NCBI GenBank assembly: GCA_039184655.1
Contig: JBCDAZ010000002.1
Span: forward strand, 8,594 to 72,593
Direction of reading: 5' to 3'
Source: Pseudomonadota bacterium
GTDB lineage: Bacteria; Pseudomonadota; Alphaproteobacteria; Rhodobacterales; Rhodobacteraceae
DNA length: 64,000 nucleotides
Shown one piece after another: positions 14,744-42,841 of this stretch. The position numbers and the translations under genes are program-made. How positions within the stretch are numbered: the stretch's first letter is position 1; every line of letters begins with the position of its first letter. The notes beneath the pieces are model-generated. The model was given only the letters and a program-made list of their open reading frames with translations. It was not told where the DNA came from and ran no database searches.

Positions 14744-15949
14744 TCAGGGCGCTGTGAGCTTTTCGACGAGACCTTTGATCGCCACACGCTGGCCTTCGGG
14801 GTTGAAGAAGTCGCCGCGCACCTGGATATGCGCGGCAAGCGCGCGGCGCAGATCGGCGGCAAGGTCGAGATCCACCGGGTCGGGATCGGTCCAGAACCGG
14901 TCGATGCCGCGCTGATGGGTCAGGCCCGGCACGTCATAAACCGCGTCGCCCAGGCACAGTACGGGGATGCCGTCGCCCAGCGCATGCAACCCGACGGTCG
15001 AGTTGGCCATAATCGCGCCCCTTGAGTTTTGGTTGAGCGGCGCAAGGCGGCTGCTGTCGACCAGATGCACGCGCGGCCCAACCTTGTAGCGTCGCGTCAG
15101 GCCTCGCAGCCGGCGCGGCCAGTTTTCCAGCCCGTTGTCGAGCGGGTGCGTCTTGATCACCAGATGCCGCTCCGGCGGGGCATGCCGGGCGAAAGAGGCA
15201 AGGATCTCATCGAGCATCTCCTCGATATGCGCATAGTCCGAGGAGGTGCGGATCTGATAATCCATCTGAAGCTGCAGCGCGACCAGGTTGTAGGGGAACG
15301 CGCCGGCCAGGCATTGATCGACCAGCGCCTCGTCGCGCCGCGCCGTAAACGCCCGCACGCCCAGGCGCAGGAGCCAGGCTAAGTACTCCGCAACCGGCCA
15401 GTAATACCTGTCTGAGCGGTAAAACGGGTAAAGCCCGCGTCCGAAGACCAGCAACAGATCGTAAAGGACCTCGCGCCAGCTTTCCTCGAAAAAGCTGTGC
15501 GTGTAACGCGGCGTCATATCGGGCTCGGTATGCCCGGCCGCCAGGCGTCGAATGGCCTGCGGGCATCGCGGGAAGGTGGAAAACCGGCCCATCGCCTCGG
15601 GTTCGATGGTCAACCAGTCGGGACGGAGATATCCGTACTCGATCGCGAAGGTGCGGATCCCGCGTGCCTTGGCCAGATCCAGCGCGGCAATATGATAGGG
15701 CAGGCGATCGGCGTAATAGAGGATGTCGGTGACCTTGTGACGTTCGATATAGGCGCTCAGCCAATCGGTCCAGCGCGAGAAGCGACCGCGAAAATGGTCC
15801 GCCCCCGGGCGCGGCCAAAAAAGCCAGTCGCCAGTATGCAAATTGACCCGCTTGATCCGGTGCCCGGCCGCCTCCAGCGCATCGGCCAGCCGGGGCCAGA
15901 GCAGCCCGGGCGGTCCCTGAAGGAACAGAAACACCTTTTGCGAAGGCAT
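14744..15949 (-). CDS. KpsS-like capsule polysaccharide biosynthesis protein (Capsule_synth family, putative beta-Kdo transferase; RkpI/RkpJ-like)
   Basis: Reads FLFLQGPPG...EYGYLRPDWLTIEP...LVIKTHPLDNG...IMANSTVGLHAL...VYDVPGLTH, which parallels E. coli KpsS (LLLQGPMGPFF, EEGYLRPQFITVEEGG, LVIKHHPMDRG, VTINSTAG). Confidence 0.85.
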   Translation of the reverse strand: MPSQKVFLFLQGPPGLLWPRLADALEAAGHRIKRVNLHTGDWLFWPRPGADHFRGRFSRWTDWLSAYIERHKVTDILYYADRLPYHIAALDLAKARGIRTFAIEYGYLRPDWLTIEPEAMGRFSTFPRCPQAIRRLAAGHTEPDMTPRYTHSFFEESWREVLYDLLLVFGRGLYPFYRSDRYYWPVAEYLAWLLRLGVRAFTARRDEALVDQCLAGAFPYNLVALQLQMDYQIRTSSDYAHIEEMLDEILASFARHAPPERHLVIKTHPLDNGLENWPRRLRGLTRRYKVGPRVHLVDSSRLAPLNQNSRGAIMANSTVGLHALGDGIPVLCLGDAVYDVPGLTHQRGIDRFWTDPDPVDLDLAADLRRALAAHIQVRGDFFNPEGQRVAIKGLVEKLTAP

Positions 15950-16047
15950 GGATTTCGCGCGGACCTGTGCCTATTGGGGCTTCACCTCGGTGGCGCTGCT
16001 GGATAGAGAGCGGGGGGAGGGGTGTCAATGAAGGGCCGATCCTGGGG

Positions 16048-17331
16048 ATGGTTGGCACTATGAATGATGCACCGCGAACCGAGGCGGCAGAGCAGGCAGC
16101 GGCACAGGGGCTTGCTGGGCGCGGGCGGCATGTGCTTTTGCTGCAGGGGCCGTTCTCGTGGTTCTTTACCTATCTAGGCCGTGCGCTGCGCGCGCGCGGA
16201 GCGCGGGTCAGCCGCGTGATCCTGTGCCCGGGCGATGCGCTTTTCTGGCGCGGTCCGGGTGCGGTGGCTTATCGCGGCCGACCGGAAGGCTGGCCGGGCT
16301 GGGTTGCGAAGTTCGCCCAGCGCGAGGCCGTCACCGATCTTGTCTGTCTGGGCGATGGGCGTTTCTGGCACCGCGCCGCGATCGCTGCATTGCCCGGCCT
16401 GCGCGCCCATATTGTGGAGCAAGGCTATCTGCGGCCCGGTTGGCTGACAGTCGAAGAAGGCGGGCTGGGGCCCAACGGGCCGTTTCCAAAAACGCCCGAC
16501 GCGATCCGGGCCTTGGCCGACGGGCCCGTACCCGCCGACCCGCCATATTGGAAGACAGGCTTTGCCACCCAGTCGGCGATGGACGTCGCCTTTAATCTGG
16601 CCAACCTTCTTGCGGGGCGGCTGACCTTTCCGCATTTCCGCATCCATACGCTCGACCCGCCCGCCTACGAGTGGGCCGGATGGCTTGGCAAAGCGCTGCG
16701 CTGGCCCTGGCGCCGCGCCGCGCGCGACCGGGCTTTGGCGCGGATCGCCGCCCATCCGGGCCCGGTGTTTCTCTTCGCGCTCCAACTCGAAACCGATTTC
16801 GCAATCCGCCAGCATGGGCCGGAGGGCGGCGTGGAGGGCGCGCTTGCCCGCACTCTTGCATCCTTTGCCGCGCATGCCCCTGACAGGGCCTTGCTGGTCG
16901 TCAAACCGCACCCGCTCGATCCGGGCTGGCTGCCCTGGCGGCGCCAGGCCGAGACTGCGGGCGCCTTGTTCCTTGATGGCGGCGATCTCGGTGCGCTCTT
17001 CAAGCGGCTGACCGGTATCGTGACGGTCAATTCGACCGTGGGCTTGTCGGCACTTGCCGCGGCGCTGCCGGTCGCGGTTCTGGGCCGGGCCATCTACGAT
17101 GTGCCGGGGCTGACCCATCGCTCTGGGCTGGACCGCTTCTGGCGCGCGCCGGAGAGGCCCGAGCCTGCATTGACCCAGGCCTTTTTGCGCGCGCTGAAGC
17201 GCACGTCGCAGATTCCCGGGCATTTCGACGGGCCAGGCGCGCGCCCAGGCGCGGCAGCGCTGGCGGCGCGGGTCCTGCAGCCACGAGCGCCAGCAGCGCC
17301 CAAAGATGAGGCCGCGCATGGCCCGGCATAA
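16048..17331 (+). CDS. Second KpsS-like capsule polysaccharide biosynthesis protein (Capsule_synth family; RkpI/RkpJ-like)
   Basis: Reads VLLLQGPFSWFF...EQGYLRPGWLTVEEGGLGPNG...LVVKPHPLDPG...VTVNSTVGLSAL...IYDVPGLTH. Divergent from the other KpsS-like gene. The start is 16048 or 16060. Confidence 0.8.
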   Translation: MVGTMNDAPRTEAAEQAAAQGLAGRGRHVLLLQGPFSWFFTYLGRALRARGARVSRVILCPGDALFWRGPGAVAYRGRPEGWPGWVAKFAQREAVTDLVCLGDGRFWHRAAIAALPGLRAHIVEQGYLRPGWLTVEEGGLGPNGPFPKTPDAIRALADGPVPADPPYWKTGFATQSAMDVAFNLANLLAGRLTFPHFRIHTLDPPAYEWAGWLGKALRWPWRRAARDRALARIAAHPGPVFLFALQLETDFAIRQHGPEGGVEGALARTLASFAAHAPDRALLVVKPHPLDPGWLPWRRQAETAGALFLDGGDLGALFKRLTGIVTVNSTVGLSALAAALPVAVLGRAIYDVPGLTHRSGLDRFWRAPERPEPALTQAFLRALKRTSQIPGHFDGPGARPGAAALAARVLQPRAPAAPKDEAAHGPA

Positions 17332-18115
17332 CCCGCGCAGCATCGTCTTGACGGGCGCATCCTCGGGCATCGGGGCGGCGCTGGCCGAGCGGCTTGCCCG
17401 CCCGGGCGTCGCAATGCTTCTGATCGGCCGCGATGCCGCCCGGCTTGATGCCGTGGCCGGCGCGGTGCGCGACCGCGGTGCGCAGGCAGCGACGGCGCCG
17501 GTTTCGGTGACCGATGCCAATGCGCTGGCGGCTTGTCTGGTCACCTGGGATGCCGACCATCCGGTGGATCTTCTGGTGGCCAATGCCGGCGTCACCAGCG
17601 GGCGGTCCGGCAAGGACGCGACCGAGCCCCCCGGACAGTCCCGCTGGATCGTCGAGACGAACCTGGTCGGCATGCTCAATACCGTCGAGCCGCTGATCCC
17701 CAAAATGATGGCCCGCAAATCCGGCCAGATCGCGCTTGTCGGATCGATAGCCGCATTGCGCCCGCAGGGCGATGAGCCTTCCTATTCGGCCTCCAAAGCC
17801 GGCGTACACGCCTATGGCGTGGCGATCCGCGGCTGGTTGCGCAAACATGGCATCGCCGTAACCGTGATCAATCCGGGCTTTGTGACAACCCCAATGTCCG
17901 CCCGGCATCTGGGTCCCAAACCCTTCGAGATCGGCGCAGGCGCGGCGGCCGAGATCATGGCCCGTGCGATTGCGCGCCGCCGAAGCCATGTCGCCTTTCC
18001 CTGGCCGCTCGGTCTTCTGACGCGGCTCGATCGGTTCCTACCGCCCAGCCTTTCGGATCGGATCGAGCGACGCTTCGCGGCGCAGATCCTGCCGGATCCG
18101 GGGCGTCAGCCATGA
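17306..18115 (+). CDS. Short-chain dehydrogenase/reductase (RkpH-like)
   Basis: TGASSGIG cofactor motif, NAG, and the YSASKAG catalytic motif. Overlaps the end of the preceding gene. Confidence 0.85.
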   Translation: MRPRMARHNPRSIVLTGASSGIGAALAERLARPGVAMLLIGRDAARLDAVAGAVRDRGAQAATAPVSVTDANALAACLVTWDADHPVDLLVANAGVTSGRSGKDATEPPGQSRWIVETNLVGMLNTVEPLIPKMMARKSGQIALVGSIAALRPQGDEPSYSASKAGVHAYGVAIRGWLRKHGIAVTVINPGFVTTPMSARHLGPKPFEIGAGAAAEIMARAIARRRSHVAFPWPLGLLTRLDRFLPPSLSDRIERRFAAQILPDPGRQP

Positions 18116-18404
18116 TCTGGCCTGCCGAAAAGCCAGCGATAACGGCGGCATACAACCGCAAGTTTGTCTTGCAATCGTTCCAAACAACTGGACAGCTTGC
18201 CAGGACGCATGAGATACACAAAACTGGACTTTGCATGAGGCCGGGCCACGCTCTCCGGCGAGACAAGAAAACAGGCGCAAAGCGGGACAGTTTGCGCAAC
18301 ACGATAAAGAGAACCTTCAGACCCTGCGTTTGGATCTGCGAGGCGCAGATGCGCCATGCCGATCCGTGTTCGGGGTTCCAAGCGGCAGGACGGGAACGGT
18401 GAGC

Positions 18405-21400
18405 ATGAGTGAACGCACCGGCCAATACGATATCGCGGTTACGGGCTATGCCTGCCGCCTGCCGCAAGCGGCGACGCCCGAGGCGTTTTGGCGCGTGCTG
18501 GCGGACGGGCGATGCGTGATCACAGAGGTGGGTGCCGACCGGTTCGAAACCGGGCTTGTCTACGACCCCGATCCCGCCGCGATCGGCAAGAGCTACAGCA
18601 TCGCTGCCGGCCAGATCGACGATATTTGGGGCTTTGATCCTGGTTTCTTCAGCATTTCGCCGCGCGAAGCGGCACAGATGGATCCCCAGCAGCGCGTCCT
18701 TTTGCAAGTGGTGTGGGAGGCGCTGGAACATGCAGGCCTAACCGGGCCCGGCCTTGACGGGGCTGGGACAGGCGTTTTCGTCGGCGCGTCGAGCTCGGAC
18801 TACTCGGCCCATTTTCTAACCGATCTGGCCAGGGTCGATACGCAGTTCATGACCGGCAACACCTTGTCGATCATCGCCAACCGCATCTCCTACCTGCTCG
18901 ATCTCGGCGGCCCTAGCTTCACGGTCGATACGGCCTGCTCATCGTCCTTTTACGCGCTGCACGCAGCCTGCCAGACGTTGATGTCTGGCGAAATCGATAC
19001 CGCAATCGTCGGCGGCGTGAACCTGCTGGTCGCGCCGGGACCGTTTGTGGGGTTTTCGCGCGCAACGATGCTGTCGCCAAGCGGCCTGTGCCGCGCTTTC
19101 GACGCCGGCGCAGACGGTTATGTCCGGTCCGAAGGGGCGGTCGTCTTCGTATTGCGGCGGCTTAAGGCGGCGTTGGAGAACGGCGAGATGGTCCGCAGCG
19201 TGCTCGCCGGCTCCGGGATCAATTCGGACGGGCGCACGGTGGGCATGTCGATGCCGTCATCGCAGCGACAGGCGGATCTCTTGCGCAGTATGCAGGCGCA
19301 ATTCGGCATCGCGGCCGACGATATTGCCTTTATCGAAGCGCATGGCACCGGTACGCCGGTCGGCGATCCGCTGGAAGCCCATGCAATCGGATCCGTTTTC
19401 GGGCAGGCGCGACAATCCCCGCTGCCGATCGGCTCGGCCAAGACGAATGTCGGGCATCTTGAGCCTGTCTCGGGCCTGGTCGGTCTGCTTAAAGCTCAAC
19501 TCGCATTGGAAAAGGGTGTTTTGCCGGCCTCGCTGCATGTCGAAGCGCCCAACCCCAATATCGACTTTCCGGCCCTGGGGCTGGAGATCGCGACGCAGGC
19601 GCGCGATTTGCCGGCACGCGACACACCCTGGTTTGCCGGGGTGAACTCCTTTGGTTTTGGCGGTGCCAACGCCCATGCGCTTTTGCGACAGCCGCGCGCG
19701 GACGAGCGCCCGGCATGCGCGCCCGTGCCGTCTGTTTGCGCGCTAACGCTGAGTGCAGCGAGCGCCGACAGCCTCACCGTGCTTGCCGCCTCGATGCGCG
19801 ACAGCCTATCAAAGGCAAGCGAAGCGGAGGCCGCTCGGCAAGTCAATGCGGCAGCCTGGCGGCGGGCCACGCTTCAGCACCGCGTCGTGGTTCTGGGCAC
19901 GGATCGGGACACGCTGCTTGCCGGCCTCGACGCGTTCGGCGCAGGCGAAAAATCACCGCTTGTGATCGAGGGCAAAGCCAACCGTACGGCTGGGAAAACG
20001 GCGTTCCTCTTTTCCGGCAATGGTTCGCAATGGGCGGGGATGGGCCATCACCTTCACGCAACCGACCCCGTTTTTCGCGACAGCTTCGACGATATCGCCG
20101 CGCGCTTTGCCAAGATCGGCAGGGTCGACCCGTCAGCGCTGCTTTTCGACGGCGATCTGGCCGAGCGGTTGGGATCGTCGCAAGTTGCGCAACCTGTGCT
20201 TTTTGCCGTGCAGATGGCCCTTGTCGATGCGCTGGCCGCGCGGGGCTTGCAACCCGATGCTGTGGCCGGGCATTCGGTCGGCGAGGTTGCCGCCGCGACA
20301 ACGGCCGGGATCATCGACCGCGCCGACGCCGTTCGCCTGGTGCACACCCGGTCGGTCGCGCTGGACGGTCTGCGCGGCAGCGGCGGCATGGCCGCAGTGT
20401 CGGCCGATGCCGCGCAGGTCGAGGCGGCCCTGGCCGAAGCCGGCATTGCCGGGGTCTCGATCGCCGGGATCAACAGCCCCCGCAGCGTGACTGTCTCGGG
20501 CGATGCCGGGCAGATCAAGGCGCTTCTGGCCTGGCTGAGGCGCAACCGGCGCGTCGCCGGCGTGATGTTGGATGTGGAGATCCCCTACCATTCGGCGTCG
20601 GTCGAACCGTTGCGTCGTCGGATGATCGAGGATCTCAAGGGGCTTCGGCCGTCGGCAAGCACGGTCGTCTACGCCTCTTCCACAACCGGCCAGATCGCCC
20701 ACGGCCTGACCCTCGATACCGATTACTGGTGGCGCAATGCGCGCGAGGTCGTGCGCTTTGAAGATGCCGTCGACGCGCTGTGCGAGGCGGGCTGCCGAAC
20801 ATTTGTCGAAGTCTCGCCGCGCCCCGTGCTGGCGGCATATGTCCGCGACAAGCTGCGGGTGACCGGGCATGCCGGCAGCGTGGCCCGCACCATGGACCAA
20901 GGCAAACGCGCCGACACCGGCGCCGCTGAAATGGTCGCCCATGCCTTTACCTTGGGTGCCGGCATCGATCGTCGCCGTTTTTTTGGTCCCAAGGCAGCGA
21001 TGGGTGCCTCCTTGCCCAACTACCCCTGGGCCAATGTGGCGGTGCGGGCACAGCCATCGACGGCCCATGCCGACGTTTGGGGTATGGGCGATTTCCACCC
21101 GCTTATCGGACGGGCTGTGATTCGGGGCAATTTCTGTTGGGAAGGCGATGTGAATGTGCGCAGCTTGCCCTGGCTGGCCGACCATGTCGTTGACGGGGTG
21201 CCGGTGTTTCCGGCCGCTGGATTTGCTGAGATGGCGCTGGCCGCCGGGACCCGGGCGCTGCCGGGGGTGGCGGTGGAGTTGACGGATTTGGAGATCGTTC
21301 GCCCCCTGGTGCTCGATCGCGATGGCGGGGTCGATACGCGCGTGACCGTCGATCCGCAGACCGGCGCGGTGCGTATCGAGGCCCGCCACAGGCTGGCGGA

Positions 21401-24400
21401 AGAGGGCTGGGCGCTGCATGCGATCGGCACAGTGCGGGCCGAAGCGTCGGATCGGCGCTTGCAGATCGATGCGCCCGTCGAAGACGCAGCGGTCGAGACC
21501 GCGCCTGCAGCGCTCTACGGCCTGCTCGATGACATCGGCCTTGCCTACGGGCCGGCCTTCCGGCTTGCCGATGCGCTGCGCAGCGATGCCGCGCGGGCCG
21601 AGGCGGTTATCCGTGCCGAGAACGGCCCCCAAGATTCGCGCTTTGCCTTGAACCCGGCGCATCTCGATGCCGCGATGCATGCGGTTTTTCCGATCCTTAT
21701 GGCGCATGCGTCGGCCGGAAGGGCCGAGGGTACGGTGTTTTTGCCGGTGCGCATCGGAAGGCTGCGTCTGGCCCGGCCCGGCACCGCTGTTGGTCTCGTC
21801 CGGGTCGCCGTTACCAGGCACTCCCCCCGCGGTGTCGATCTTGCGCTGGAGCTTTTAGGCGCCGACGGCTCGGTCGTGGCGGTGGTCGAGGGGCTGCGCC
21901 TGCAAGCGACCCGGCTGCGCGGACGCGCGGGGCATGAGGCGCTGACCTGGCAGCAACGCCTGGTCCGGCTGCGCGAACCCGATGGGCGTGTGCACCTGCC
22001 CTCGGGCTGGCGCGCGCCGGACAACCGGTTGCGCGCGCTGGGGGTTGCGACCGTAGACGAGCCCGATCCGGATGCCGGGCTGCTGTTGGTCGATGCGGCT
22101 TGCCGGCGCCTGGCCTGGGACAGCGTCGCAGCGCTTGTCGGCCCGCAGGGGCGCCTTCTCGGAGCAGCCAACCCGGTGCTCGCTCGGCTTCTTGTCGCAC
22201 TGGAAGAGGACGGTCTTTTCGAACCGGACGAAACCGGCGGCCGGATCCTTGCCGACTGCCCCTACCCCACGATGTCCGAAATCGTGGCCTCGATGACGCG
22301 CGAGGCGCCGGAGCGAGCGCAGGAGCTGATGGAGCTTATGCGCCTGGAGCGGCTCTTGCCGACGCTCGCGGCCGATCCTGACGGGCTTGCGGATGTGCAG
22401 CCCGCGCCAAGCGGAATGGATCTTTCTGCCGGACAGCGACAGATCTGGCAAAGCATGGGGCGCGTCGCTTCCGATCTGGCTCAGGGATGGTCGGCTAAGG
22501 AGCGCTTGAGCGTCCTTATCCTGGGCGAAGCGCCGGCGACGATCGTCGACACGCTATGCCGGGCAGAGCGGGCCTGCGACGTCGTCGTCGCCCATACCGA
22601 GGAACGGGTGGTGGAGCGGTTACGCCAAACGCTTCCCGCCGCGCCCGGGCTGCAGGTGGTACCGCTGGCAGAGGCGCTGCGGCCGTTTCGCTTCGACGTC
22701 GTGCTCTGCGTCGACCTGCTGGACGGGCTTGACGAGGCCGGCCGCGATGCGCTTTCGGCCAGCCTTGCGCTGTCGGGCCTACTTGTCGCTGCCATGACGG
22801 AACCCTCGCTGATCCAGGCGCTGCGCCAGATTGTGCGCGAGCGCGGTGCCGCCGCCCGTGCTTCGTCGCGCGCTGCCGATGTCGAAACGGCGCTTGCGGC
22901 AGGGTTTCGTGACATCACGGCGCAAACGCTGGCCACCGGCGCGGTCGAGGCCCGCATTCTCACGGCCCGGCCTCGCCACCAAGCGGTTCGGGCCAGCCTG
23001 CCGGTGCCGGCCGAGGGGCCACGGCGCCTGGCGCTCTTGGTGCTGACCGACCGGCGCGAGGAGAACCGCCGCATCGCAGCCCTTTTGGAGGCCTCGCTGG
23101 TCACGGCCGGGCTCGACGTGCGGCAATGCCTCGCCGGCGATCGGATCGCATTGGAGGAGGCGGTCAGCGAGGTCGTGCATCTGGCCGACTTGCCGGATGC
23201 CGACAGCGATCCGATGGACACGGCGACCCGGCGCATCGAAACCTTGCGGGACATTCTCGACGCTCCGGCCCAGCCCGAGCGGGTCTGGGTCGTCACCCGT
23301 GGCGGCGCACCCATCGACGGTGCCGTCGAATCGCGCGCGGCCCCCCAGGACATGCCCCAGACCAACGATGCCGCGATTTGGGGCGCCACGCGCGTGGTTA
23401 CCAACGAATACCCAGCGATCGAGTTTCGCCAGATCGATTTTCCGGTCGCAACCGCCCCGGAGACGCTGGCCGAGAACATCTGTTCCTTGATCATGTCGGG
23501 CACCGATGAGGCGGAGATCGTCTTCGACGAGGCCGGCTTCTTGGCGCCGCGGGTCGAGCCTGGTCCAGATATCGAGGATGCCGGCCAGGGCCGTGCGCTC
23601 CAGCTTCGGATCGGCCAGCAAGCGGTTCTCGACACCCTGTCCTGGCGCCCCGCTGAGCGTCGCGACCCGGGCCCGGGAGAAATCGAAATCGAGATCCGGG
23701 CGACCGGTCTGAACTTTCGCGATCTGATGTGGGCGCAGGGGCTTTTGCCCGACGAGGCGCTGGAGGATGGCTTTGCCGGTGCGACGCTGGGGATGGAGTG
23801 CGCGGGCATCGTGGCAAAGGCCGGCAAGGGCAGCGCTTTTCGCCGCGGCGATGCGGTGATCGCCTTTGCCCCAGCTTGCTTTTCGACCCATGTGACGGTG
23901 GCCTGCGAGGCCGTGGCGCGACTTCCGGCCGGGGCGACGCTTGAGACCGCGGCCGCGATCCCGACGATTTTTGTAACGGCGCAATATGCGCTGGCCACGC
24001 TGGCCAATCTGCGACGCGGGGACGTGCTGCTTGTGCATGGCGGCGCCGGTGGGGTGGGCCTGGCCGCGGTTCAGATTGCCAGACGTCTGGGCGCTGAAGT
24101 GATCGCCACCGCGGGCACGCCGGAAAAACGGCGGCTCTTGCGCCATCTGGGCGTTCGGGCGGTCTTTGACAGCCGCAGCCTGGCCTTTGCCGAGGAGGTG
24201 ATGGCAGAAACCGCCGGGCGCGGGGTCGATGTGGTTTTAAACTCGCTGGCCGGCGAGGCGATGGAGCGCTCTTTGTCCTGTCTCAAGCCTTTTGGACGGT
24301 TTGTCGAGCTGGGCAAGCGGGACTTTTACGCCAATACGCGCCTGGGTCTGCGGCCTTTTCGCCGGAACCTGAGTTATTTCGGCGTCGATGCCGATCAGCT

Positions 24401-25823
24401 CTTGCGCGACCGTCCCGATCTTGCGGAAACGCTGTTGTCGGAGGTTGCTGAAGGCTTTGCCGATGGTGCCTACACAGCGCCGCCCTGCCAGATCTTCGAG
24501 GCGGCCGAAATCGTCGATGCCTTCCGTCTGATGCAACAGTCGCGCCATATCGGCAAGGTCATCCTGCGCCCGCCAGCGCTGCCTGCCGCGGCTCCGACCG
24601 CCTTGGTACGGAAACCGGGCGCGCCCGTACGCGGGGCCTGGCTTATCGTCGGCGGGCTCGGCGGGTTCGGCCTCGCTACGGCCCGGCAGTTGGCACGCGA
24701 GGGTGCCGAGGCGATCTGGCTTTCCAGCCGCTCGGGCCGTACGCGCGAGGCGGATAAGACCGCTCTGGAGGCGCTGCGCGCCACGGGCATTCCGGTGATG
24801 CTGCGCGCCGCCGATACAACCGATGCCGCAGCGACCCAAGCGCTGATCAACGAGATTGCGGCGGGCGACGTGCCGCTGCGTGGCGTTGTCCATGCGGCGA
24901 TGCTGCTCGACGACGCACTCTCGGCCGATCTCGACACCGATCGGATATCGGCCGTCATGGCGCCCAAGATCGCGGGTGCATATCAGCTCGACCGGCTGAC
25001 GCGCGAACTCGATCTGGACCATTTCGTGCTGTTCTCTTCGGTTACGACGCTCTTTGGCAATCCCGGGCAGCTGCCCTACGTCGCCGCCAACAGCTATCTG
25101 GAAAGGTTGGCCGTCGAAAGGCGGGCCGCGGGGCTACCCGGATTTGCAATCGCCTGGGGCCCGATCGCCGATCAGGGCTATCTTGCGCGCGACGAGCGGA
25201 CGCGGACGCTTTTGTCGCGCAAGCTGGGCGCGCGGATGCTCACAGCGGCCGAGGCCCTTGCAATTTTTGCACGCCTTCTGAAGACGCCGCCCGATGCCGC
25301 CGTGCTTTCGGTCGCGCCGATGCGTTGGCGGCTTCTTGCCTCGGATCTCAAACTGCTCTCCACACCGCTCTTCCACCGGATCGAAATGGAGGAGGGTGGT
25401 GGCATGAGCGATGGCGTGGCCGATCTGCTCGCCCTGATCGACGGGCTCGACGATGAGGCGGCTGCGGGTAAAATCACCGAGGCGCTGGTCGCCGAGACGG
25501 CCCGTATCCTTAGACAGCCAGCAACGGAAATCGACCCCTACCAACCGTTGACCGAGCTGGGCTTTGACTCGCTCATGGCAATGGATCTTAAGCTTGCGGC
25601 CGAGGAGGCGATGGGCGTGACAATTCCGATCCTGTCCGTAGGCGACGGGATGACCCTGGCCCAGCTTGCTACGCGCATCGTCGGACAGCTTCGCGGCGGC
25701 GGCGGACGGGTCACCGGCGACACCGATGGCGATAAAATCGTCAGCCAGCATCTTGGCGCGCAGGACGCCGAGATCGACGATGATCTGGTGCGCAGGGTAA
25801 GCGAGCGGGCCAATCAGATTTGA
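18405..25823 (+). CDS. Type I polyketide synthase, fully reducing: KS-AT-DH-(pseudo-MT/structural region)-ER-KR-ACP (RkpA-like)
   Basis: KS: DTACSSS (Cys 18936-18938), HGTGT, GHLE. AT: GHSVGE (Ser 20274-20276). DH: HPLIGR (His 21096-21098) and DHVVDGVPVFPAAG. ER: LVHGGAGGVGLAAVQ. KR: GGLGGFG...YVAANSY. ACP: LGFDSL (Ser 25569-25571). No thioesterase domain. Confidence 0.95.
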   Translation: MSERTGQYDIAVTGYACRLPQAATPEAFWRVLADGRCVITEVGADRFETGLVYDPDPAAIGKSYSIAAGQIDDIWGFDPGFFSISPREAAQMDPQQRVLLQVVWEALEHAGLTGPGLDGAGTGVFVGASSSDYSAHFLTDLARVDTQFMTGNTLSIIANRISYLLDLGGPSFTVDTACSSSFYALHAACQTLMSGEIDTAIVGGVNLLVAPGPFVGFSRATMLSPSGLCRAFDAGADGYVRSEGAVVFVLRRLKAALENGEMVRSVLAGSGINSDGRTVGMSMPSSQRQADLLRSMQAQFGIAADDIAFIEAHGTGTPVGDPLEAHAIGSVFGQARQSPLPIGSAKTNVGHLEPVSGLVGLLKAQLALEKGVLPASLHVEAPNPNIDFPALGLEIATQARDLPARDTPWFAGVNSFGFGGANAHALLRQPRADERPACAPVPSVCALTLSAASADSLTVLAASMRDSLSKASEAEAARQVNAAAWRRATLQHRVVVLGTDRDTLLAGLDAFGAGEKSPLVIEGKANRTAGKTAFLFSGNGSQWAGMGHHLHATDPVFRDSFDDIAARFAKIGRVDPSALLFDGDLAERLGSSQVAQPVLFAVQMALVDALAARGLQPDAVAGHSVGEVAAATTAGIIDRADAVRLVHTRSVALDGLRGSGGMAAVSADAAQVEAALAEAGIAGVSIAGINSPRSVTVSGDAGQIKALLAWLRRNRRVAGVMLDVEIPYHSASVEPLRRRMIEDLKGLRPSASTVVYASSTTGQIAHGLTLDTDYWWRNAREVVRFEDAVDALCEAGCRTFVEVSPRPVLAAYVRDKLRVTGHAGSVARTMDQGKRADTGAAEMVAHAFTLGAGIDRRRFFGPKAAMGASLPNYPWANVAVRAQPSTAHADVWGMGDFHPLIGRAVIRGNFCWEGDVNVRSLPWLADHVVDGVPVFPAAGFAEMALAAGTRALPGVAVELTDLEIVRPLVLDRDGGVDTRVTVDPQTGAVRIEARHRLAEEGWALHAIGTVRAEASDRRLQIDAPVEDAAVETAPAALYGLLDDIGLAYGPAFRLADALRSDAARAEAVIRAENGPQDSRFALNPAHLDAAMHAVFPILMAHASAGRAEGTVFLPVRIGRLRLARPGTAVGLVRVAVTRHSPRGVDLALELLGADGSVVAVVEGLRLQATRLRGRAGHEALTWQQRLVRLREPDGRVHLPSGWRAPDNRLRALGVATVDEPDPDAGLLLVDAACRRLAWDSVAALVGPQGRLLGAANPVLARLLVALEEDGLFEPDETGGRILADCPYPTMSEIVASMTREAPERAQELMELMRLERLLPTLAADPDGLADVQPAPSGMDLSAGQRQIWQSMGRVASDLAQGWSAKERLSVLILGEAPATIVDTLCRAERACDVVVAHTEERVVERLRQTLPAAPGLQVVPLAEALRPFRFDVVLCVDLLDGLDEAGRDALSASLALSGLLVAAMTEPSLIQALRQIVRERGAAARASSRAADVETALAAGFRDITAQTLATGAVEARILTARPRHQAVRASLPVPAEGPRRLALLVLTDRREENRRIAALLEASLVTAGLDVRQCLAGDRIALEEAVSEVVHLADLPDADSDPMDTATRRIETLRDILDAPAQPERVWVVTRGGAPIDGAVESRAAPQDMPQTNDAAIWGATRVVTNEYPAIEFRQIDFPVATAPETLAENICSLIMSGTDEAEIVFDEAGFLAPRVEPGPDIEDAGQGRALQLRIGQQAVLDTLSWRPAERRDPGPGEIEIEIRATGLNFRDLMWAQGLLPDEALEDGFAGATLGMECAGIVAKAGKGSAFRRGDAVIAFAPACFSTHVTVACEAVARLPAGATLETAAAIPTIFVTAQYALATLANLRRGDVLLVHGGAGGVGLAAVQIARRLGAEVIATAGTPEKRRLLRHLGVRAVFDSRSLAFAEEVMAETAGRGVDVVLNSLAGEAMERSLSCLKPFGRFVELGKRDFYANTRLGLRPFRRNLSYFGVDADQLLRDRPDLAETLLSEVAEGFADGAYTAPPCQIFEAAEIVDAFRLMQQSRHIGKVILRPPALPAAAPTALVRKPGAPVRGAWLIVGGLGGFGLATARQLAREGAEAIWLSSRSGRTREADKTALEALRATGIPVMLRAADTTDAAATQALINEIAAGDVPLRGVVHAAMLLDDALSADLDTDRISAVMAPKIAGAYQLDRLTRELDLDHFVLFSSVTTLFGNPGQLPYVAANSYLERLAVERRAAGLPGFAIAWGPIADQGYLARDERTRTLLSRKLGARMLTAAEALAIFARLLKTPPDAAVLSVAPMRWRLLASDLKLLSTPLFHRIEMEEGGGMSDGVADLLALIDGLDDEAAAGKITEALVAETARILRQPATEIDPYQPLTELGFDSLMAMDLKLAAEEAMGVTIPILSVGDGMTLAQLATRIVGQLRGGGGRVTGDTDGDKIVSQHLGAQDAEIDDDLVRRVSERANQI

Positions 25824-25831
25824 GGCGTGTG

Positions 25832-27178
25832 ATGACCGACAACCCCCTTTTGGACTCGTTGCGTCGGGCCAGAAGCGCGCGCCGCCAGCGTGGGCGGCAG
25901 GATGGCGCGCCGCTGCCGCAAAAACCGGCCGATCCGGCCCAGCTCAAAGCGCATGATTTTGCCGATCTGCCGGCCAACAAACAGGTCAAGATGACCAAGG
26001 CTGTGGCCGAGCTGACCGGGCTTGCCAGCCCGTTTTTTCGCAATCATGTGGTCACTTCGACCGCGGGCGCTCGGATCAATCAGACCGATTGCATCAATTT
26101 TGCATCCTACAACTATCTGGGCCTAAACGATCATCCGAAGGTGCGCGCAGCGGCGCGCGAGGCGGTCGATCGCTGGGGCGTCTCTGCCGGCGCAAGCCGC
26201 CTGGTTGGGGGCGAACACCCCTACCACCGCCCGCTGGAGGCGCGTTTGGCCGAGGCGCTGGGCACCGATGCTTGCCTCGTCATGGTTTCGGGTCACGCCA
26301 CCAATGTAACAACCATCGGTACGCTGATGGGGCCGCGTGATCTCGTGCTGGTCGACAGCCTGATCCATAACTCGGTGTCCGAGGGCATCCGCCTGTCGGG
26401 CGCGCAGCGCATCAGTTTCCCCCATAACGATTGGGGCTGGGTCGACGAAACGCTGCGGCGCAGCCGAAAGCAGTACGACAATGTGCTGATCGTGGTCGAA
26501 GGGCTTTATTCGATGGATGGCGACAGCCCCGATCTGGCCCGTTTCGTCGAGGTTAAGGCGCGCCATGCGGCCTGGCTGATGGTCGACGAAGCGCATTCGC
26601 TGGGTGTGCTGGGCGAGACGGGTCGCGGCATTGCCGAAGCTCAGGGCGTGGATCCCGCCTCGGTCGAGATCTGGATGGGAACGCTCTCCAAGACCTTGTC
26701 CAGCTGCGGCGGCTATATCGCCGGGCCAAGCGCGCTGATCGAGGTGCTGCGCTACACAGCGCCGGGCTTTGTGTTTTCGGTCGGCCTGGCAGCGCCGCTG
26801 GCGGCAACCGCGCTTGCCGCGCTCGATGTCATGCTCGACGAGCCCGCGCGAATTGCCCGGCTTGAGGCGAATGGGCAACGCTTGCGCCGCCGGGCCGTCG
26901 AGGCGGGGCTCGATACCGGCTATTCCGAAGGCCATGCGGTCACCCCGATCATCATTGGCGACAGCTTCCGCACGGCGATGATCGCCGATGATATCTTGCG
27001 CGACGGCGTAAACGCTCTGCCGATCATCGCCCCCGCCGTGCCGGACAAGCAAGCGCGGTTGCGGTTCTTTCTGACGTCGGAGCATACCGGCGATCAGATC
27101 GACAGGGCCGTGGCCGTGACCGCGGCTGCGGTCGAGGCGCGCAAGGGCGAGGACGTGCTTTCGCGCTTGAAAAACTGA
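25832..27178 (+). CDS. Alpha-oxoamine synthase family PLP enzyme (8-amino-7-oxononanoate synthase / serine palmitoyltransferase-like; RkpG-like)
   Basis: Reads NFASYNYLGL...SGHATN...DEAHSLGVLG...GTLSKTL, with the PLP lysine codon at 26690-26692. The gene begins 9 nt after the PKS stop. Confidence 0.9.
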   Translation: MTDNPLLDSLRRARSARRQRGRQDGAPLPQKPADPAQLKAHDFADLPANKQVKMTKAVAELTGLASPFFRNHVVTSTAGARINQTDCINFASYNYLGLNDHPKVRAAAREAVDRWGVSAGASRLVGGEHPYHRPLEARLAEALGTDACLVMVSGHATNVTTIGTLMGPRDLVLVDSLIHNSVSEGIRLSGAQRISFPHNDWGWVDETLRRSRKQYDNVLIVVEGLYSMDGDSPDLARFVEVKARHAAWLMVDEAHSLGVLGETGRGIAEAQGVDPASVEIWMGTLSKTLSSCGGYIAGPSALIEVLRYTAPGFVFSVGLAAPLAATALAALDVMLDEPARIARLEANGQRLRRRAVEAGLDTGYSEGHAVTPIIIGDSFRTAMIADDILRDGVNALPIIAPAVPDKQARLRFFLTSEHTGDQIDRAVAVTAAAVEARKGEDVLSRLKN

Positions 27179-28209: not shown

Positions 28210-28260
28210 CGCTCCGGCATCTCGGCGACGTTGCGCATCCTGGCTGCAGGAGGATTTGTC

Positions 28261-36081: not shown

Positions 36082-36231
36082 TCTGAACCCGGGGTCGGGG
36101 TGCATGGAGGCGCCCCGGCCGCCCGCGGGGCTGTCTGCGCAGGCCGGCGGATCCGGCCAAGTTGCCGTGCCGGCCGGCCTTGGGACCGGCCGAGCGCGCG
36201 GCCCCCGCAGCGAGGCGGTGCGACACAGGCC

Positions 36232-37455
36232 ATGACGGTTACGCGCGAAGGTCAGCTCAATCCCCCAAGACCGCGCCGCAAGGTCACGCGCCGCAAACCC
36301 GATGCGCAGCTTCGCGTCCCGCCTCTTCCACCAAGCGGGCAGATGCGCGCGCGTCTGCGCGTCCGCCATCTTCTGGTGATCGCCTCTTTCCTGGCCATGT
36401 TCGTGCTGCCCGCGATCGCGGTGAACTGGTATCTACAGATGCAGGCGGCCGACCAATACGTCTCGCGCGCCGCGCTCACCGTCGATGAAGATGATTTCGT
36501 GACCACGATCGGCATGCTGGGCGATCTCACGCAGCCGATCACCTCCGAGGCCAGCGATACGGATGTGCTCTACCAGTTCATCACCAGCCAGGATATGGTG
36601 GTGCGCGTGGATGCGGCGCTCGACCTGCGCCGGCTCTACCGCAAACATGCCGAACGTGATCCGGTGCTGAGCCTTTCCGACGATCCCTCGATCGAGGCGC
36701 TGGTGCGGTACTGGCAGCGCATGGTCGATATAGCCTATGAGCCGCGACAGGGCGTGATCGGGCTGCACGTGCGGGCGTTTTCGCCCGAAGATGCACGGGC
36801 GATCAACCGTACGGTAATTGCCGAGAGCCATCGGTTGATCAACGCCCTGACCGAGGCTGCGCGGCTCGACGCTGTGCGCTATGCCGAGGCGGATCTGGCT
36901 GAAGCGCGGGATCGGATGAAAGCGCTTTTTGCCCGGCTACGGATTTTTCGAAACGAAAACAGTGTGATCCTTCCCGATGCCAATGCCGAAAGCCAGTTCC
37001 AGATCATCTCTTCCTTGCAAGACAAGATGGCCGAGGCGCTGATTGAACGCACAGAGCTGATCGAGACGACCCGTCCCGGCGATCAACGCATTGCGCGGCT
37101 TGATCGTCGCATTGCCGCAATCACCGGGCAGCTGAGCCGTGAGCGGGCGCGGCTGGGTTCGACCTTGGGCGATGGCGGCCGCACCCTCTCCGAAGTTCTG
37201 ACCGACTATGAGGAGATCCTCGTCGATATCGAGTTTGCGGTCGAGGCCTATATCTCGACGCTGGCCGAACTCGATGCGGCGCGCACCGATGCGCGGCGGC
37301 TTGCGCGCTATTTATCGGTTCACATCGCACCGACTTTGGCCGAAACGCCAGGCTATCCGCAGCGCCTGTTGCTGGGCGCCCTTCTGACCGGCCTTTTGTT
37401 CGTCGTCTGGCTGATGGTCACGCTTATCGGCTACAACATCCGCGACTCGCAATAA
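36232..37455 (+). CDS. kpsE: Capsule polysaccharide export inner-membrane protein KpsE-like (PCP-3 family)
   Basis: N-terminal TM helix (LLVIASFLAMFVLPAIAV), a long coiled periplasmic region, a Pro-rich motif PTLAETPGYPQR before the C-terminal TM helix, and kpsT immediately downstream. The start is uncertain. Confidence 0.8.
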   Translation: MTVTREGQLNPPRPRRKVTRRKPDAQLRVPPLPPSGQMRARLRVRHLLVIASFLAMFVLPAIAVNWYLQMQAADQYVSRAALTVDEDDFVTTIGMLGDLTQPITSEASDTDVLYQFITSQDMVVRVDAALDLRRLYRKHAERDPVLSLSDDPSIEALVRYWQRMVDIAYEPRQGVIGLHVRAFSPEDARAINRTVIAESHRLINALTEAARLDAVRYAEADLAEARDRMKALFARLRIFRNENSVILPDANAESQFQIISSLQDKMAEALIERTELIETTRPGDQRIARLDRRIAAITGQLSRERARLGSTLGDGGRTLSEVLTDYEEILVDIEFAVEAYISTLAELDAARTDARRLARYLSVHIAPTLAETPGYPQRLLLGALLTGLLFVVWLMVTLIGYNIRDSQ

Positions 37456-37461
37456 ACAATC

Positions 37462-38127
37462 ATGATCCGCTTTGAGAACGTCACCAAGTTCTTTCCGATC
37501 CGCGGCGGTTATCGGCGCATTATCGAGCATCTCAATCTCGACATTCCGCGCGGCCGCAGCGTCGGCCTCTTGGGTCGCAACGGTGCCGGCAAGTCGACCG
37601 TGTTGAAGATGATCGCGGGAACGCTGGATCCCGATGAGGGGCGTATCATCCGCCAGGCCCGTATCTCCTGGCCGCTGGGCTTTGCTGGCGGGTTTCACCC
37701 CAACCTCACGGGTGCGCAGAACGTGCGCTTCGTGGCGCGGATCTACGGTGTCGATACCGATGCGCTGCTTGCCTATGTGGAGGATTTCGCGGAGTTGGGA
37801 AAGTTCCTCTACGAGCCGGTGATCACCTATTCCTCGGGCATGCGGGCGCGTCTGGCCTTTGGGGTGTCGATGGGCGTGGCTTTCGACTTTTATCTCGTCG
37901 ATGAGGTCACCGCGGTCGGCGACGAGGATTTTCGGCGCAAATGCCAAGCCGTGTTCACCCAGCGTCTGACCAAGTCCGACGTCATCATGGTCTCGCATTC
38001 AATGAATATGCTGCGCCAGTACTGCACAGGCGGCATCGTGCTGGAACATGGCAAGGCCATCTATTACGAGGATCTCGAAGAGGCGATCGATTTGCATATG
38101 GCCAATATGACCGGCCAGAATGGGTGA
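37462..38127 (+). CDS. kpsT: Capsule polysaccharide export ABC transporter ATP-binding protein KpsT-like
   Basis: 221 aa. Walker A GRNGAGKST, signature YSSGMRARLAF, Walker B FYLVDEVTAVGD. Size and motifs are typical of KpsT. Confidence 0.9.
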   Translation: MIRFENVTKFFPIRGGYRRIIEHLNLDIPRGRSVGLLGRNGAGKSTVLKMIAGTLDPDEGRIIRQARISWPLGFAGGFHPNLTGAQNVRFVARIYGVDTDALLAYVEDFAELGKFLYEPVITYSSGMRARLAFGVSMGVAFDFYLVDEVTAVGDEDFRRKCQAVFTQRLTKSDVIMVSHSMNMLRQYCTGGIVLEHGKAIYYEDLEEAIDLHMANMTGQNG

Positions 38128-41728: not shown

Positions 41729-41800
41729 GGCGCGCCGACGGCCACCGGTGCGCCGACGGCCACGGGCGCAGCCGACGGCCACGGGCGCAGCCGACGCCAT
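41729..41800. repeat. 18/19-bp tandem repeat, ~4 copies (core GCCGACGGCCAC), between rfbB and rfbA
   Basis: The core recurs at spacings of 18, 19 and 19 nt. Confidence 0.85.
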
Positions 41801-41852
41801 CGACGCGCGGGCGCCACCGGCACGCGGTCTTGCGAGGAAGGGAGAGAAGCCG

Positions 41853-42749: not shown

Positions 42750-42841
42750 TCCCATCCGGCGGGGCGCCTAGGCTCCGCCGAGCGGGACAGTGCGGCGGCC
42801 GCTTTGCTCGCCGCCCAAACGATGCCGAGCCAACCCAGCCG

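Follow-up and report, generated by a model that had tools for sequence, protein, structure and literature searches.

A marine alphaproteobacterial version of the rhizobial and Burkholderia capsule gene set that probably makes the lipid terminus of capsular polysaccharide

Among the described systems that resemble the locus considered here, the rkp-1 region of Sinorhizobium meliloti and S. fredii comes first; its gene list reads rkpU, rkpA[BCDEF], rkpG, rkpH, rkpI, rkpJ and kpsF3. Kiss is said to have found in 1997 that the surface K antigen is lost in rkpA-J mutants, and Muller in 2009 reportedly saw intracellular poly-Kdo build up in rkp-1 mutants of strain Rm1021. In reviews, rkp-1 is held to make a "specific lipid carrier" that is required for K-antigen export (PMC4881576). 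The WcbR/RkpA proteins form one recognised PKS family within capsule clusters (PMC3908369), and wcbR is the fatty-acid-synthesis component of the CPS-I of Burkholderia pseudomallei (PMC7858667). By literature description only, this wcb cluster resembles the present locus in its PKS (WcbR) and its acyltransferase/alpha-oxoamine synthase (WcbT). KpsC and KpsS proteins of the standard type (WcbA and WcbO) are presumably among its products as well.

In E. coli group 2 systems, KpsS and a two-module KpsC (GT107) act on (lyso)phosphatidylglycerol, in a pathway that has no PKS, alpha-oxoamine synthase (AOS) or SDR partner. A different logic governs the biosynthesis of long-chain bases: serine palmitoyltransferase (SPT), an AOS, joins an acyl thioester to an amino acid, and 3-ketosphinganine reductase turns the resulting 3-ketone into an alcohol. 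Similarly, in the fungal fumonisin pathway, the thioesterase-less PKS Fum1 is off-loaded by the AOS Fum8, with Fum13 as the reductase. There is also a precedent for an anchor other than Kdo-phosphatidylglycerol in an ABC-transporter capsule, namely, the Vi antigen (VexE, diacyl-HexNAc; PMC12220298), although Vi systems have neither KpsS/KpsC homologues nor a PKS or AOS.

The cassette described here lies in a 64-kb stretch of DNA, all of which was analysed (hereafter, the window), and is a marine alphaproteobacterial form of a gene set already described in rhizobia and Burkholderia. An earlier note, made from the sequence alone, had described two KpsS-type genes transcribed in opposite directions from a spacer of roughly 100 bp; on the plus strand, the KpsS-type gene is followed by an SDR, a type I PKS of about 2470 aa and an AOS. 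This layout is borne out: all five genes lie where the note had placed them, and both KpsS-type proteins, as it had expected, match the Capsule_synth family (Table 1). The P-type reading frame offers candidate starts at 15967, 16048 and 16060 and ends at 17331; the NCBI call on the same contig (P0121) points to the last of these starts and hence to the spacer length given in Table 1. No consensus sigma-70 site was found in this spacer. The start of the SDR gene overlaps the P-type stop by 14-26 nt, depending on which SDR start (17318 or 17306) is used. The PKS reading frame spans 18231-25823, with the ATG at 18402 (MSERTG) as the likely start, and the AOS gene begins 8 nt past the PKS stop; in a related locus (L086), these two genes overlap by 4 nt. 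Chance is not an issue here, since every domain hit far exceeds the gathering score of its Pfam model and dozens of genomes carry the same genes together.

Table 1. Features of the cassette and of the downstream export and polymer genes (positions in the window)
Feature	Position	Strand	Basis
M-type KpsS-like beta-Kdo transferase candidate, single-module, RkpJ-like, 401 aa	14744..15949	-	PF05159 2e-61
Divergent spacer between M-type and P-type genes, 98-110 bp by start codon	15950..16059		sequence reading
P-type KpsS-like beta-Kdo transferase candidate, single-module, 423 aa	16060..17331	+	PF05159 4e-56
Classical SDR, 265 aa, alternative ATG 17306	17318..18115	+	adh_short 9e-39
RkpA/WcbR-type single-module fully reducing type I PKS, ~2473 aa	18402..25823	+	Pfam domains
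RkpG/WcbT-type PLP-dependent AOS, 448 aa	25832..27178	+	PF00155 6e-41
KpsE/CtrB/BexC-family inner-membrane export adaptor, probable start ATG 36232	36100..37455	+	TIGR01010 4.6e-53, full length
KpsT-type polysaccharide-export ABC ATPase	37462..38127	+	TagH, Wzt, VexC model matches
GT2-family glycosyltransferase	38120..39580	+	Glyco_tranf_2_3 4e-21
c8, conserved capsule-locus protein of unknown family	39577..40596	+	homologues in related loci
RmlB	40673-41728	+	Pfam GDP_Man_Dehyd/Epimerase
RmlA ORF	41610-42749	+	Pfam NTP_transferase
Two GT4 glycosyltransferases	42746-44218, 44029-45762	+	Pfam Glycos_transf_1

The M-type and P-type paralogues are 38-39% identical to each other. Against the NCBIfam KpsS equivalog model, which has a cut-off of 600 bits, the M-type protein scores 201 bits over its full length and the P-type protein 147 bits, so that neither is an E. 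coli-type KpsS. The hallmark of retaining beta-Kdo transferases, a QXXXD nucleophile motif with an HP motif (PMC10148158), is nevertheless found in both: Q226xxxD230 and H268-P269 of the M-type protein are invariant in an alignment of 20 homologues, and Q246xxxD250 and H288-P289 of the P-type protein are likewise invariant. When the P-type protein was modelled with AF2 (pLDDT 90.4), the top Foldseek matches of the model were the KpsC 2,7-Kdo transferase 6MGD (4e-9), E. coli KpsC-N and WbbB; Kdo transferases of the KrkA kind are matched as well. We regard both proteins as candidate beta-Kdo transferases by their motifs, the P-type model having a matching fold. The PF05159 fold, these motifs, the structural similarity to KpsC modules and the KpsT- and KpsE-type export partners are all shared with the E. 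coli group 2 system; in contrast to that system, both proteins are single-module, and no multi-module KpsC is encoded within the window. As the earlier note suggested, the two paralogues may stand in for KpsC and extend an acceptor that is not a glycerolipid.

The earlier note had matched the gene set to S. meliloti rkp-1, and for three genes the homology stands: relative to strain Ak57 (L088), the PKS is 38-42% identical to RkpA, the AOS 51% to RkpG, and the M-type protein 42.6% to RkpJ, sharing a neighbor-joining clade with RkpJ-type proteins. The presence of an SDR and the tie to a Kdo-containing K antigen with ABC-type export (PMC4881576, PMC7902896) add to the likeness. It does not, however, extend to RkpI, RkpH or the second KpsS paralogue. 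RkpI, which the note had taken to be KpsS-like, is a PF00884 sulfatase/LTA-synthase-family membrane protein, and no such gene is found in the window. The divergently transcribed P-type gene has no rkp-1 counterpart; P-type proteins form a separate neighbor-joining clade without RkpJ-type members and, among 80 related loci, never share a locus with RkpI. Nor is the SDR shown to be an orthologue of RkpH, as the two are only 29% identical (28-32% across RkpH-type SDRs) and belong to different SDR subgroups (best NCBIfam model PRK07024 versus PRK06181/PRK07109). The SDR of the window is coupled to the P-type gene and not to the PKS-AOS pair; it is 50-61% identical to SDRs located 3' of P-type genes in Rhodobacterales loci, and 39% identical to an SDR from a Pseudomonas plasmid. 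Gene order and orientation also differ from rkp-1, and neither rkpU/KpsD nor kpsF adjoins the cassette.

The PKS has the Pfam domain order KS-AT-DH-(non-catalytic linker)-ER-KR-ACP and contains no thioesterase domain. Its motifs are intact, namely, DTACSS/HGTGT/NVGH in KS, GHSVGE in AT, HVVDGVPVFP in DH, HGGAGGVG in ER, GGLGGFG and YVAAN in KR, and GFDSL in ACP. The AT domain shows an unusual IPYH where HAFH or YASH would be expected, which we list against the lipid-primer chemistry proposed below. The PKS and AOS genes form a fixed pair in 32 of the 80 loci; in L013 and L086 they remain together although 70 kb of the contig separate them from the KpsS pair. The AOS, with its PLP lysine within TLSKT, scores under the cut-off of every bioF, KBL and SPT model of NCBIfam, whereas its top PDB matches are BioF/KBL (8S1Y, 4e-61) and SPT (8GUH, 6e-60). 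Being equidistant from BioF, KBL and SPT, it does not allow the amino acid substrate to be named. The likeness to long-chain-base biosynthesis concerns how the enzymes work and does not place them in the same families, and no ceramide-synthase or other sphingolipid genes are found near the cassette.

On balance, we lean towards reading the cassette as the module that supplies the lipid primer in a capsule system of the ABC-transporter-dependent (group 2-like) kind, where the acceptor is likely a sphingoid-like amino alcohol. The single-module PKS would work iteratively, in the manner of a fatty acid synthase, using malonyl units to assemble a long saturated acyl chain that stays bound to the ACP of the enzyme itself. 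The translationally adjacent AOS would then off-load the chain from the thioesterase-less PKS through a decarboxylative Claisen condensation that takes an amino acid as co-substrate, yielding a long-chain 2-amino-3-ketone, the keto group of which could be reduced by the SDR to the hydroxyl of a sphingoid-like amino alcohol. To this lipid or its derivative, the two KpsS-type enzymes would add the first beta-Kdo residues from CMP-Kdo; the polymer may be grown on this primer by the GT2 and GT4 enzymes together with the dTDP-rhamnose-pathway genes, and exported by KpsT and KpsE together with KpsM and KpsD, two partners that the window does not show. As regards each of these chemical steps, the amino acid, the chain length, the initiating transferase and a phosphate on the lipid, we infer rather than observe.

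A less probable, albeit credible, possibility is that the anchor is still a glycerophospholipid: a very-long-chain (hydroxy) fatty acid made by the PKS would enter a phosphoglycerol-type lipid, the KpsS-type enzymes would, like KpsS of E. coli, add sugar to the glycerol of its head group, and the AOS and SDR would only modify the chain or the head group. The only rhizobial anchor described, that on the poly-Kdo of S. meliloti 1021, was reportedly called a phospholipid in the title of Fraysse 2005, which speaks against an amino-alcohol acceptor wholly free of phosphate; the anchor is said to be a phosphoglycerol with a hydroxy-C28 acyl chain. Furthermore, the majority of cassettes from other lineages, those of Ensifer, Agrobacterium, Pseudomonas and Caballeronia among them, come with an RkpI/LTA-synthase-family protein, and relatives of these phosphotransferase-like proteins transfer phosphoglycerol or phosphoethanolamine, a hint of a phospho-bridge; the window, however, lacks such a gene. 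Catalytic domains of the LtaS/EptA type usually work at the periplasmic face of the membrane, whereas Kdo is transferred in the cytoplasm. The acceptor of E. coli KpsS is indeed (lyso)phosphatidylglycerol (PMC10148158), yet a glycerophospholipid anchor would leave without a role the strictly co-inherited AOS, placed where a thioesterase would free the chain.

The link between the cassette and capsules is strong, and the export genes that the earlier note had anticipated are found both in the window and in relatives. About 9 kb downstream of the cassette, the window encodes KpsE-like and KpsT proteins, glycosyltransferases and rmlAB; RmlB, RmlA and the two GT4 genes (40673..45762) are serotype-specific polymer genes. 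The KpsE-like protein, with hydrophobic segments at both termini, is 36-39% identical, and KpsT 64-69% identical, to the products of genes adjoining KpsS pairs in related loci; c8, which has no match in Pfam, NCBIfam or PDB, has counterparts of 48-50% identity in 13 related loci, where they adjoin KpsE, KpsM and KpsT, and the GT2 enzyme has a homologue at the equivalent position in L017. Among 54 related loci that have full 10-kb flanks, 39 contain a KpsS pair, 29 have PKS and AOS within 10 kb, 29 have a KpsM, KpsT, KpsE or KpsD gene within the same distance, and 20 combine PKS and AOS with an export gene. In the Caballeronia p2 locus (a Burkholderiaceae plasmid), the set of PKS, AOS and SDR, with an LTA-synthase-like gene, directly adjoins KpsD, KpsM, KpsT and KpsE; unlike the window, this locus thus has an RkpI-like gene, and it carries an LpxC-like gene as well. 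In the Pseudomonas plasmid pL21564-1, the same set is found with KpsS- and (multi-module) KpsC-like genes, kpsF, kdsB and kdsA.

Further observations count against the lipid-primer reading: the 64 kb contain neither KpsM nor KpsD, and housekeeping genes (addAB, folC, accD and TrcR) surround the cassette, away from export genes, both in the window and in L001 and L002, its closest relatives. The latter, together with the 15 of the 54 full-flank loci in which the 10 kb around KpsS hold no PKS/AOS and no export genes, would suit a product that is a free Kdo-glycolipid, a glycosphingolipid-like component of the envelope and not a capsule primer. We consider this rather improbable, given that export genes flank the cassette in 20 of the 30 full-flank loci carrying PKS or AOS and directly adjoin it in Caballeronia, that the KpsE, KpsT and c8 proteins of the window are close homologues of those encoded next to KpsS pairs elsewhere, and that rkp-1 mutants reportedly lose the K antigen. 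It is very improbable that PKS-AOS is a mere neighbour of the capsule genes and that its product, an amino-ketone or hydroxy-ketone, diffuses freely as a secondary metabolite or a signal of the CqsA/LqsA kind, because, although CqsA-type enzymes are distant homologues of the AOS (CAI-1 synthase, 8e-27 in PDB; PRK07179, 3e-51 in NCBIfam), the AOS is far closer to BioF, KBL and SPT, and the linkage of PKS-AOS to PF05159 genes is kept across Alpha-, Beta- and Gammaproteobacteria in varying gene orders.

Taken together, the gene set itself is already known, while the lipid that it makes is still undefined: in line with the earlier note, our literature search found no paper that chemically defines this product. 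The PKS, the AOS, the SDR and the two candidate Kdo transferases probably build the lipid end of the capsule polysaccharide.

The gene set that the earlier note had described at positions 14744-27178, namely, a divergent pair of KpsS-type genes, an SDR, a PKS and an alpha-oxoamine synthase (AOS), was found exactly as stated, in the order KpsS(-) versus KpsS(+), SDR, PKS, AOS (see the table). Both KpsS-like proteins, on whose match to Capsule_synth that note had staked its reading, score well with this model (208.5 and 191.1 bits, against a gathering cut-off of 20); below, the minus-strand protein is referred to as M-type and its plus-strand paralogue as P-type. Since the NCBI protein entry P0121 sets the start of the P-type gene at ATG 16060, the spacer between the divergent genes is about 100 bp long. 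According to its Pfam architecture, the PKS is a single KS-AT-DH-ER-KR-ACP module that lacks a thioesterase, and those of its catalytic motifs that were checked are all intact. The AT domain contains GHSVGE but carries IPYH at the usual HAFH/YASH site; because of this atypical motif, the extender unit is not confidently readable, and a call based on HAFH/YASH was rejected. The ORF calling, which used a codon-position GC filter against false antisense ORFs in this GC-rich DNA (66%), missed the P-type and SDR genes of the window, and, therefore, the gene maps also rest on tblastn. In the spacer between the SDR and PKS genes, the window and two Paracoccaceae MAG loci (L001 and L002) share a conserved block of ~35 nt (CAAACAACTGGACAGC...GCATGAGA), the remainder of the spacer having diverged; this block may act in the control of the PKS-AOS unit, as a promoter or a regulatory site. 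Promoter, terminator, Rfam and tRNA scans yielded nothing informative.

Features of the window in and around the capsule lipid cassette
Feature	Position	Strand	Remarks
M-type KpsS-like protein, 401 aa	14744-15949	-	PF05159 Capsule_synth, E=2e-61
P-type KpsS-like protein, 423 aa	start ATG 16060 (P0121)	+	PF05159, E=4e-56
Classical SDR	17306/17318-18115	+	overlaps stop of P-type gene
Conserved spacer block	~18181-18215		SDR-PKS intergenic
Type I PKS, ~2473 aa	probable start ATG 18402	+	follows SDR
PLP alpha-oxoamine synthase (AOS), 448 aa	begins 8 nt past PKS stop	+	
PG_binding_1 protein and 824-aa caspase (Peptidase_C14)/Sel1-repeat protein	27205-30705	+	directly after AOS
KpsE/CtrB/BexC-family protein	36100-37455	+	TIGR01010, 4.6e-53
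KpsT ATPase	37462-38127	+	
c8 conserved protein, ~330 aa	39577-40596	+	
GT2 glycosyltransferase, RmlB, RmlA, two GT4 enzymes	within 36100-45762	+	other genes of the downstream capsule locus
877-aa ABC exporter (ABC_membrane + ABC_tran) adjoining 589-aa LCAT-like (lecithin:cholesterol acyltransferase family) protein	56343-60817	-	unrelated to the cassette

The active-site motifs bear on the possibility that the two KpsS-like proteins transfer Kdo, the capsule linker sugar. Retaining beta-Kdo transferases are defined by QXXXD, with its catalytic Asp nucleophile, and by the donor-site motif HP (PMC10148158). In 20-sequence alignments, both motifs are invariant in both families, with QXXXD represented by QLQMD in the M-type and by QLETD in the P-type proteins. 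The two paralogues of the window are 38-39% identical, and a neighbor-joining tree of 117 sequences (midpoint-rooted, without bootstrap) splits into two clades, one in which the minus-strand protein and its syntenic partners stand with the RkpJ-type proteins, the other comprising the plus-strand protein and its partners. The NCBIfam KpsS equivalog (NF050054) aligns with both proteins over the full length at 201 bits (M-type) and 146.6 bits (P-type), below its cut-off of 600. A phmmer search of the PDB with the M-type protein gave no match, and a profile built on the P-type family retrieved E. coli KpsC-N from it at just E=0.002. The AlphaFold model of the P-type protein (pLDDT 90.4) has its best Foldseek matches in 6MGD, 8FUX, 6MGC, 8CSB and 5FA0, with E from 4e-9 to 1e-6 and TM of 0.45-0.62 by target length; the best structural matches are KpsC modules of T. 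dismutans and E. coli, WbbB and KrkA, and the P-type protein is predicted to possess a GT-B-like fold resembling that of KpsC and WbbB. Thus, the motifs, the full-length match to the KpsS model and the structural matches of the P-type protein make both proteins credible candidates for single-module beta-Kdo transferases of the KpsS type. Unlike E. coli KpsS, both paralogues remain far below the NF050054 cut-off and, judging from the sequences, neither is an orthologue of E. coli KpsS or KpsC. The 64-kb window contains no two-module KpsC (two tandem PF05159 modules, ~650-700 aa) and no PF05159 gene beyond the two single-module ORFs.

The AOS (PF00155, 6e-41) retrieves 50 AOS sequences from the PDB at E<=1e-20 and, with the Schiff-base PLP lysine kept in TLSKT, is readily assigned to the fold-type I alpha-oxoamine synthase superfamily. 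It is about equally near to BioF/KBL (8S1Y, 4e-61) and serine palmitoyltransferase (8GUH, 6e-60) and stays under every equivalog cut-off (bioF 333/426, KBL 289/460, SPT 284/500), falling, by the NCBIfam equivalog models, into no characterised subfamily among BioF, KBL, SPT, ALAS and CqsA. Its orthologues (54-79% identity) are spread widely over Alphaproteobacteria under generic names only; naming the amino-acid substrate from active-site residues was rejected as unreliable. The SDR of the window shares 50-61% identity with the SDRs encoded after P-type genes in Rhodobacterales, 39% with an SDR encoded on a Pseudomonas plasmid, and 28-32% with RkpH-type SDRs (29% with RkpH of S. meliloti). Given this low identity and the different best NCBIfam models, PRK07024 for the SDR of the window versus PRK06181/PRK07109 for the RkpH type, orthology of the SDR with RkpH is not established.

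The earlier note had matched the gene set to the rkp-1 region, rkpA-G-H-I-J, on which the K-antigen capsule of S. meliloti depends, and this interpretation is supported in part. As in rkp-1, the PKS is of the RkpA type (38-42% identical to RkpA of strain Ak57), the AOS that directly follows it is 51% identical to RkpG, and the M-type protein is 42.6% identical to RkpJ (311 bits) and shares its clade in the tree. Unlike rkp-1, the window encodes no RkpI, a PF00884 sulfatase/LTA-synthase-family membrane protein (no RkpI-type gene was found in the 64 kb by tblastn and HMM searches), and differs in gene order and orientation from the Ensifer loci, where PKS, AOS, SDR, RkpI and RkpJ are co-directional. 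The same note took both RkpI and RkpJ to be KpsS-like, which holds for RkpJ alone; RkpI belongs to PF00884, in line with the entry 'rkpI ... Sulfatase' in a paper of 2024 (PMC11375893). RkpJ corresponds to one, the M-type, of the two paralogues of the window.

For a broader comparison, 185,579 species genomes were scanned with the profile of the P-type protein, which gave 421 encoding stretches, and 80 loci were retained from these; locus maps were derived from tblastn and ORF clustering, with Pfam run on cluster representatives. Two architectures are seen among the sampled loci. In the first one, found in Rhodobacterales and in many Rhizobium, Allorhizobium and Neorhizobium genomes, the SDR usually comes after a divergent KpsS pair, often with a convergent AOS-PKS unit next, and the conserved protein c8, KpsE, KpsM and KpsT, or else KpsD, frequently come before the pair. 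The second one, found in Ensifer/Sinorhizobium, Agrobacterium and Pararhizobium, has the order PKS, AOS, SDR, a 531-538-aa PF00884 sulfatase-family protein and a single KpsS-like gene, and is the canonical rkpA-G-H-I-J arrangement, as confirmed by the annotation of S. meliloti Ak57 (RkpU-like export protein, RkpA, RkpG, RkpH, RkpI, RkpJ, KpsF), where RkpI, missing from the annotation listing, was located by tblastn. The 3.7-Mb Ak57 record in PLSDB (CP090106.1) is labelled 'plasmid pSymB', yet holds the rkp-1 region, secD and other genes that belong to the chromosome in S. meliloti; the record would seem to be a chromosome under a wrong label.

Of the 54 loci whose 10-kb flanks are complete, 39 have a KpsS pair within 10 kb, 29 have PKS plus AOS, 29 likewise have an export gene (KpsM, KpsT, KpsE or KpsD), and 20 have PKS/AOS together with an export gene. 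The PKS and AOS genes form a fixed unit of two, which is sometimes distant from the KpsS pair of the same genome: two of the loci (L013 and L086) are on the same contig at a distance of 70 kb, and in another (L085) the unit stands in a different context. Two mobile sub-modules make up the cassette: one is PKS-AOS, the other the KpsS pair and its SDR. Genes of the RkpI type and of the P-type exclude each other among the 80 loci: none of the 13 RkpI loci has a P-type gene, and none of the 56 loci with a pair has RkpI. Divergent PF05159 proteins that are neither M- nor P-type occur in six cassette loci, namely, L058, L066, L072 and L082 (c27, ~432 aa), L003 (8314-9870, 518 aa) and L085 (11385-13166, 593 aa), so that several single-module Capsule_synth lineages exist in alphaproteobacterial capsule loci.

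The cassette is also found outside Alphaproteobacteria, on plasmids of Gamma- and Betaproteobacteria. Plasmid pL21564-1 of Pseudomonas sp. TMW 2.1634 carries PKS, AOS, an LTA-synthase-family protein, SDR, kpsF, kdsB and kdsA, along with one single-module and two multi-module PF05159 proteins, the latter forms being unlike the single-module pair of the window. Plasmid p2 of Caballeronia insecticola encodes SDR, an LTA-synthase-family protein, PKS, an LpxC-like deacetylase placed between PKS and AOS, and AOS, followed by KpsD, KpsM, KpsT and KpsE. Genes for Kdo synthesis and export accompany the set in three classes of Proteobacteria. The Pseudomonas plasmid is mobilizable and has a flanking IS5 transposase.

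The window is part of a metagenome-assembled contig of 171,945 bp. By the KpsS-like protein, its closest relatives are Paracoccaceae MAGs and Oceanicella/Paroceanicella (67-72% identity); the two MAG loci L001 and L002 share with it the housekeeping synteny (addA, thioredoxin, folC, accD, aminotransferase IV, Zn-ADH, TrcR) that leads up to KpsS/KpsS-SDR-PKS-AOS. A capsule-type ABC-transporter locus lies 9 kb downstream of the cassette (36100-45762, plus strand) and, as in ABC-transporter-dependent (group 2-like) capsule systems, includes a KpsT ATPase and a KpsE adaptor; no KpsM permease and no KpsD/Wza-like outer-membrane protein were found within the 64 kb by tblastn and HMM searches. The same KpsE-KpsT-c8-GT2 set, also without an adjoining KpsM, is present in Rhizobium albus. 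Because KpsT, KpsE and c8 of the window resemble genes that directly adjoin KpsS pairs in related genomes (64-69%, 36-39% and 47-50% identity, respectively), an ancestral supercluster seems to have been split in the lineage of the window. In 13 related loci, the c8 protein adjoins KpsE, KpsM and KpsT, an arrangement suggestive of an unrecognised conserved component of such capsule systems; c8 has no Pfam, NCBIfam or PDB-profile match and is unrelated to KpsS by hhalign, and its single-sequence AF2 model (pLDDT 41) is unusable. In locus L034, a homologue (39% identity) of the caspase protein encoded after the AOS is 3.4 kb away from the KpsS pair.

A conserved lipid terminus lets capsules of ABC-transporter systems be exported and kept on the cell; in E. 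coli-type capsules, this terminus is Kdo-phosphatidylglycerol. We consider it likely that the cassette is, in general terms, a module for making a capsule lipid primer. From the observed gene content, motifs, homology and linkage, we infer the following chemistry. The iterative PKS would make a long saturated acyl-ACP, from which the AOS would off-load the chain by condensation with an amino acid, yielding a 2-amino-3-ketone; the SDR would turn the ketone into a hydroxyl to give a sphingoid-like amino alcohol; the two KpsS-type enzymes would then place the first Kdo residues from CMP-Kdo, and the polymer would be built by the downstream glycosyltransferases and exported by the KpsT/KpsE-type machinery. 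The same logic operates in SPT with ketosphinganine reductase and in the fumonisin enzymes Fum1/Fum8/Fum13, a likeness in working and not in family membership. That the acceptor is specifically an amino alcohol is a tentative proposal, somewhat on the doubtful side. It competes with an anchor of the phosphoglycerol type that carries an unusual PKS-derived chain, a reading prompted by the phospholipid anchor reported for poly-Kdo of S. meliloti (Fraysse 2005) and by the RkpI/LTA-synthase-type protein that most cassettes elsewhere include. As an extension of the amino-alcohol proposal, it can be imagined, although we deem it improbable, that the P-type protein and the SDR coupled to it, on the one hand, and the RkpI/LTA-synthase-type protein, on the other, are alternative means of joining the PKS/AOS amino lipid to the first Kdo: in the window, the SDR-made hydroxyl would be glycosylated directly, in rkp-1 and in wcb, the CPS-I capsule cluster of Burkholderia pseudomallei, a phospho-alcohol bridge would intervene, and several single-module KpsS-type enzymes would replace the two-module KpsC.

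The PKS/AOS genes of the rkp-1 and wcb type have been tied to capsule since the 1990s and are relevant to legume symbiosis, with wcbR discussed for melioidosis virulence. In reviews, rkp-1 is said to produce a 'specific lipid carrier' (PMC4881576). WcbR and RkpA are acknowledged as one family of PKSs encoded in capsule clusters (PMC3908369), and, for B. pseudomallei, wcbR has been described as the fatty-acid component of CPS-I (PMC7858667); in the full texts searched, from which most subscription papers are missing, no chemical definition of the PKS/AOS cassette product was found. The cassette is long known but biochemically unexplained, and what is new is the M/P pair of KpsS-like proteins with its own SDR and without RkpI, an architecture widespread in Rhodobacterales and Rhizobiaceae genomes. 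The window adds comparative constraints and not a new handle, existing model organisms being no harder to attack the problem with. Should the hydroxyl indeed be glycosylated directly, the product would be a Kdo-sphingoid-like glycolipid, a class of capsule anchor without glycerol phosphate. Taken together, the two sub-modules, the equivalence of RkpJ to one paralogue, the mutual exclusion of P-type and RkpI in 80 loci, and the co-localisation with Kdo and export genes in three classes lead to concrete, testable predictions on the chemistry of the acceptor.
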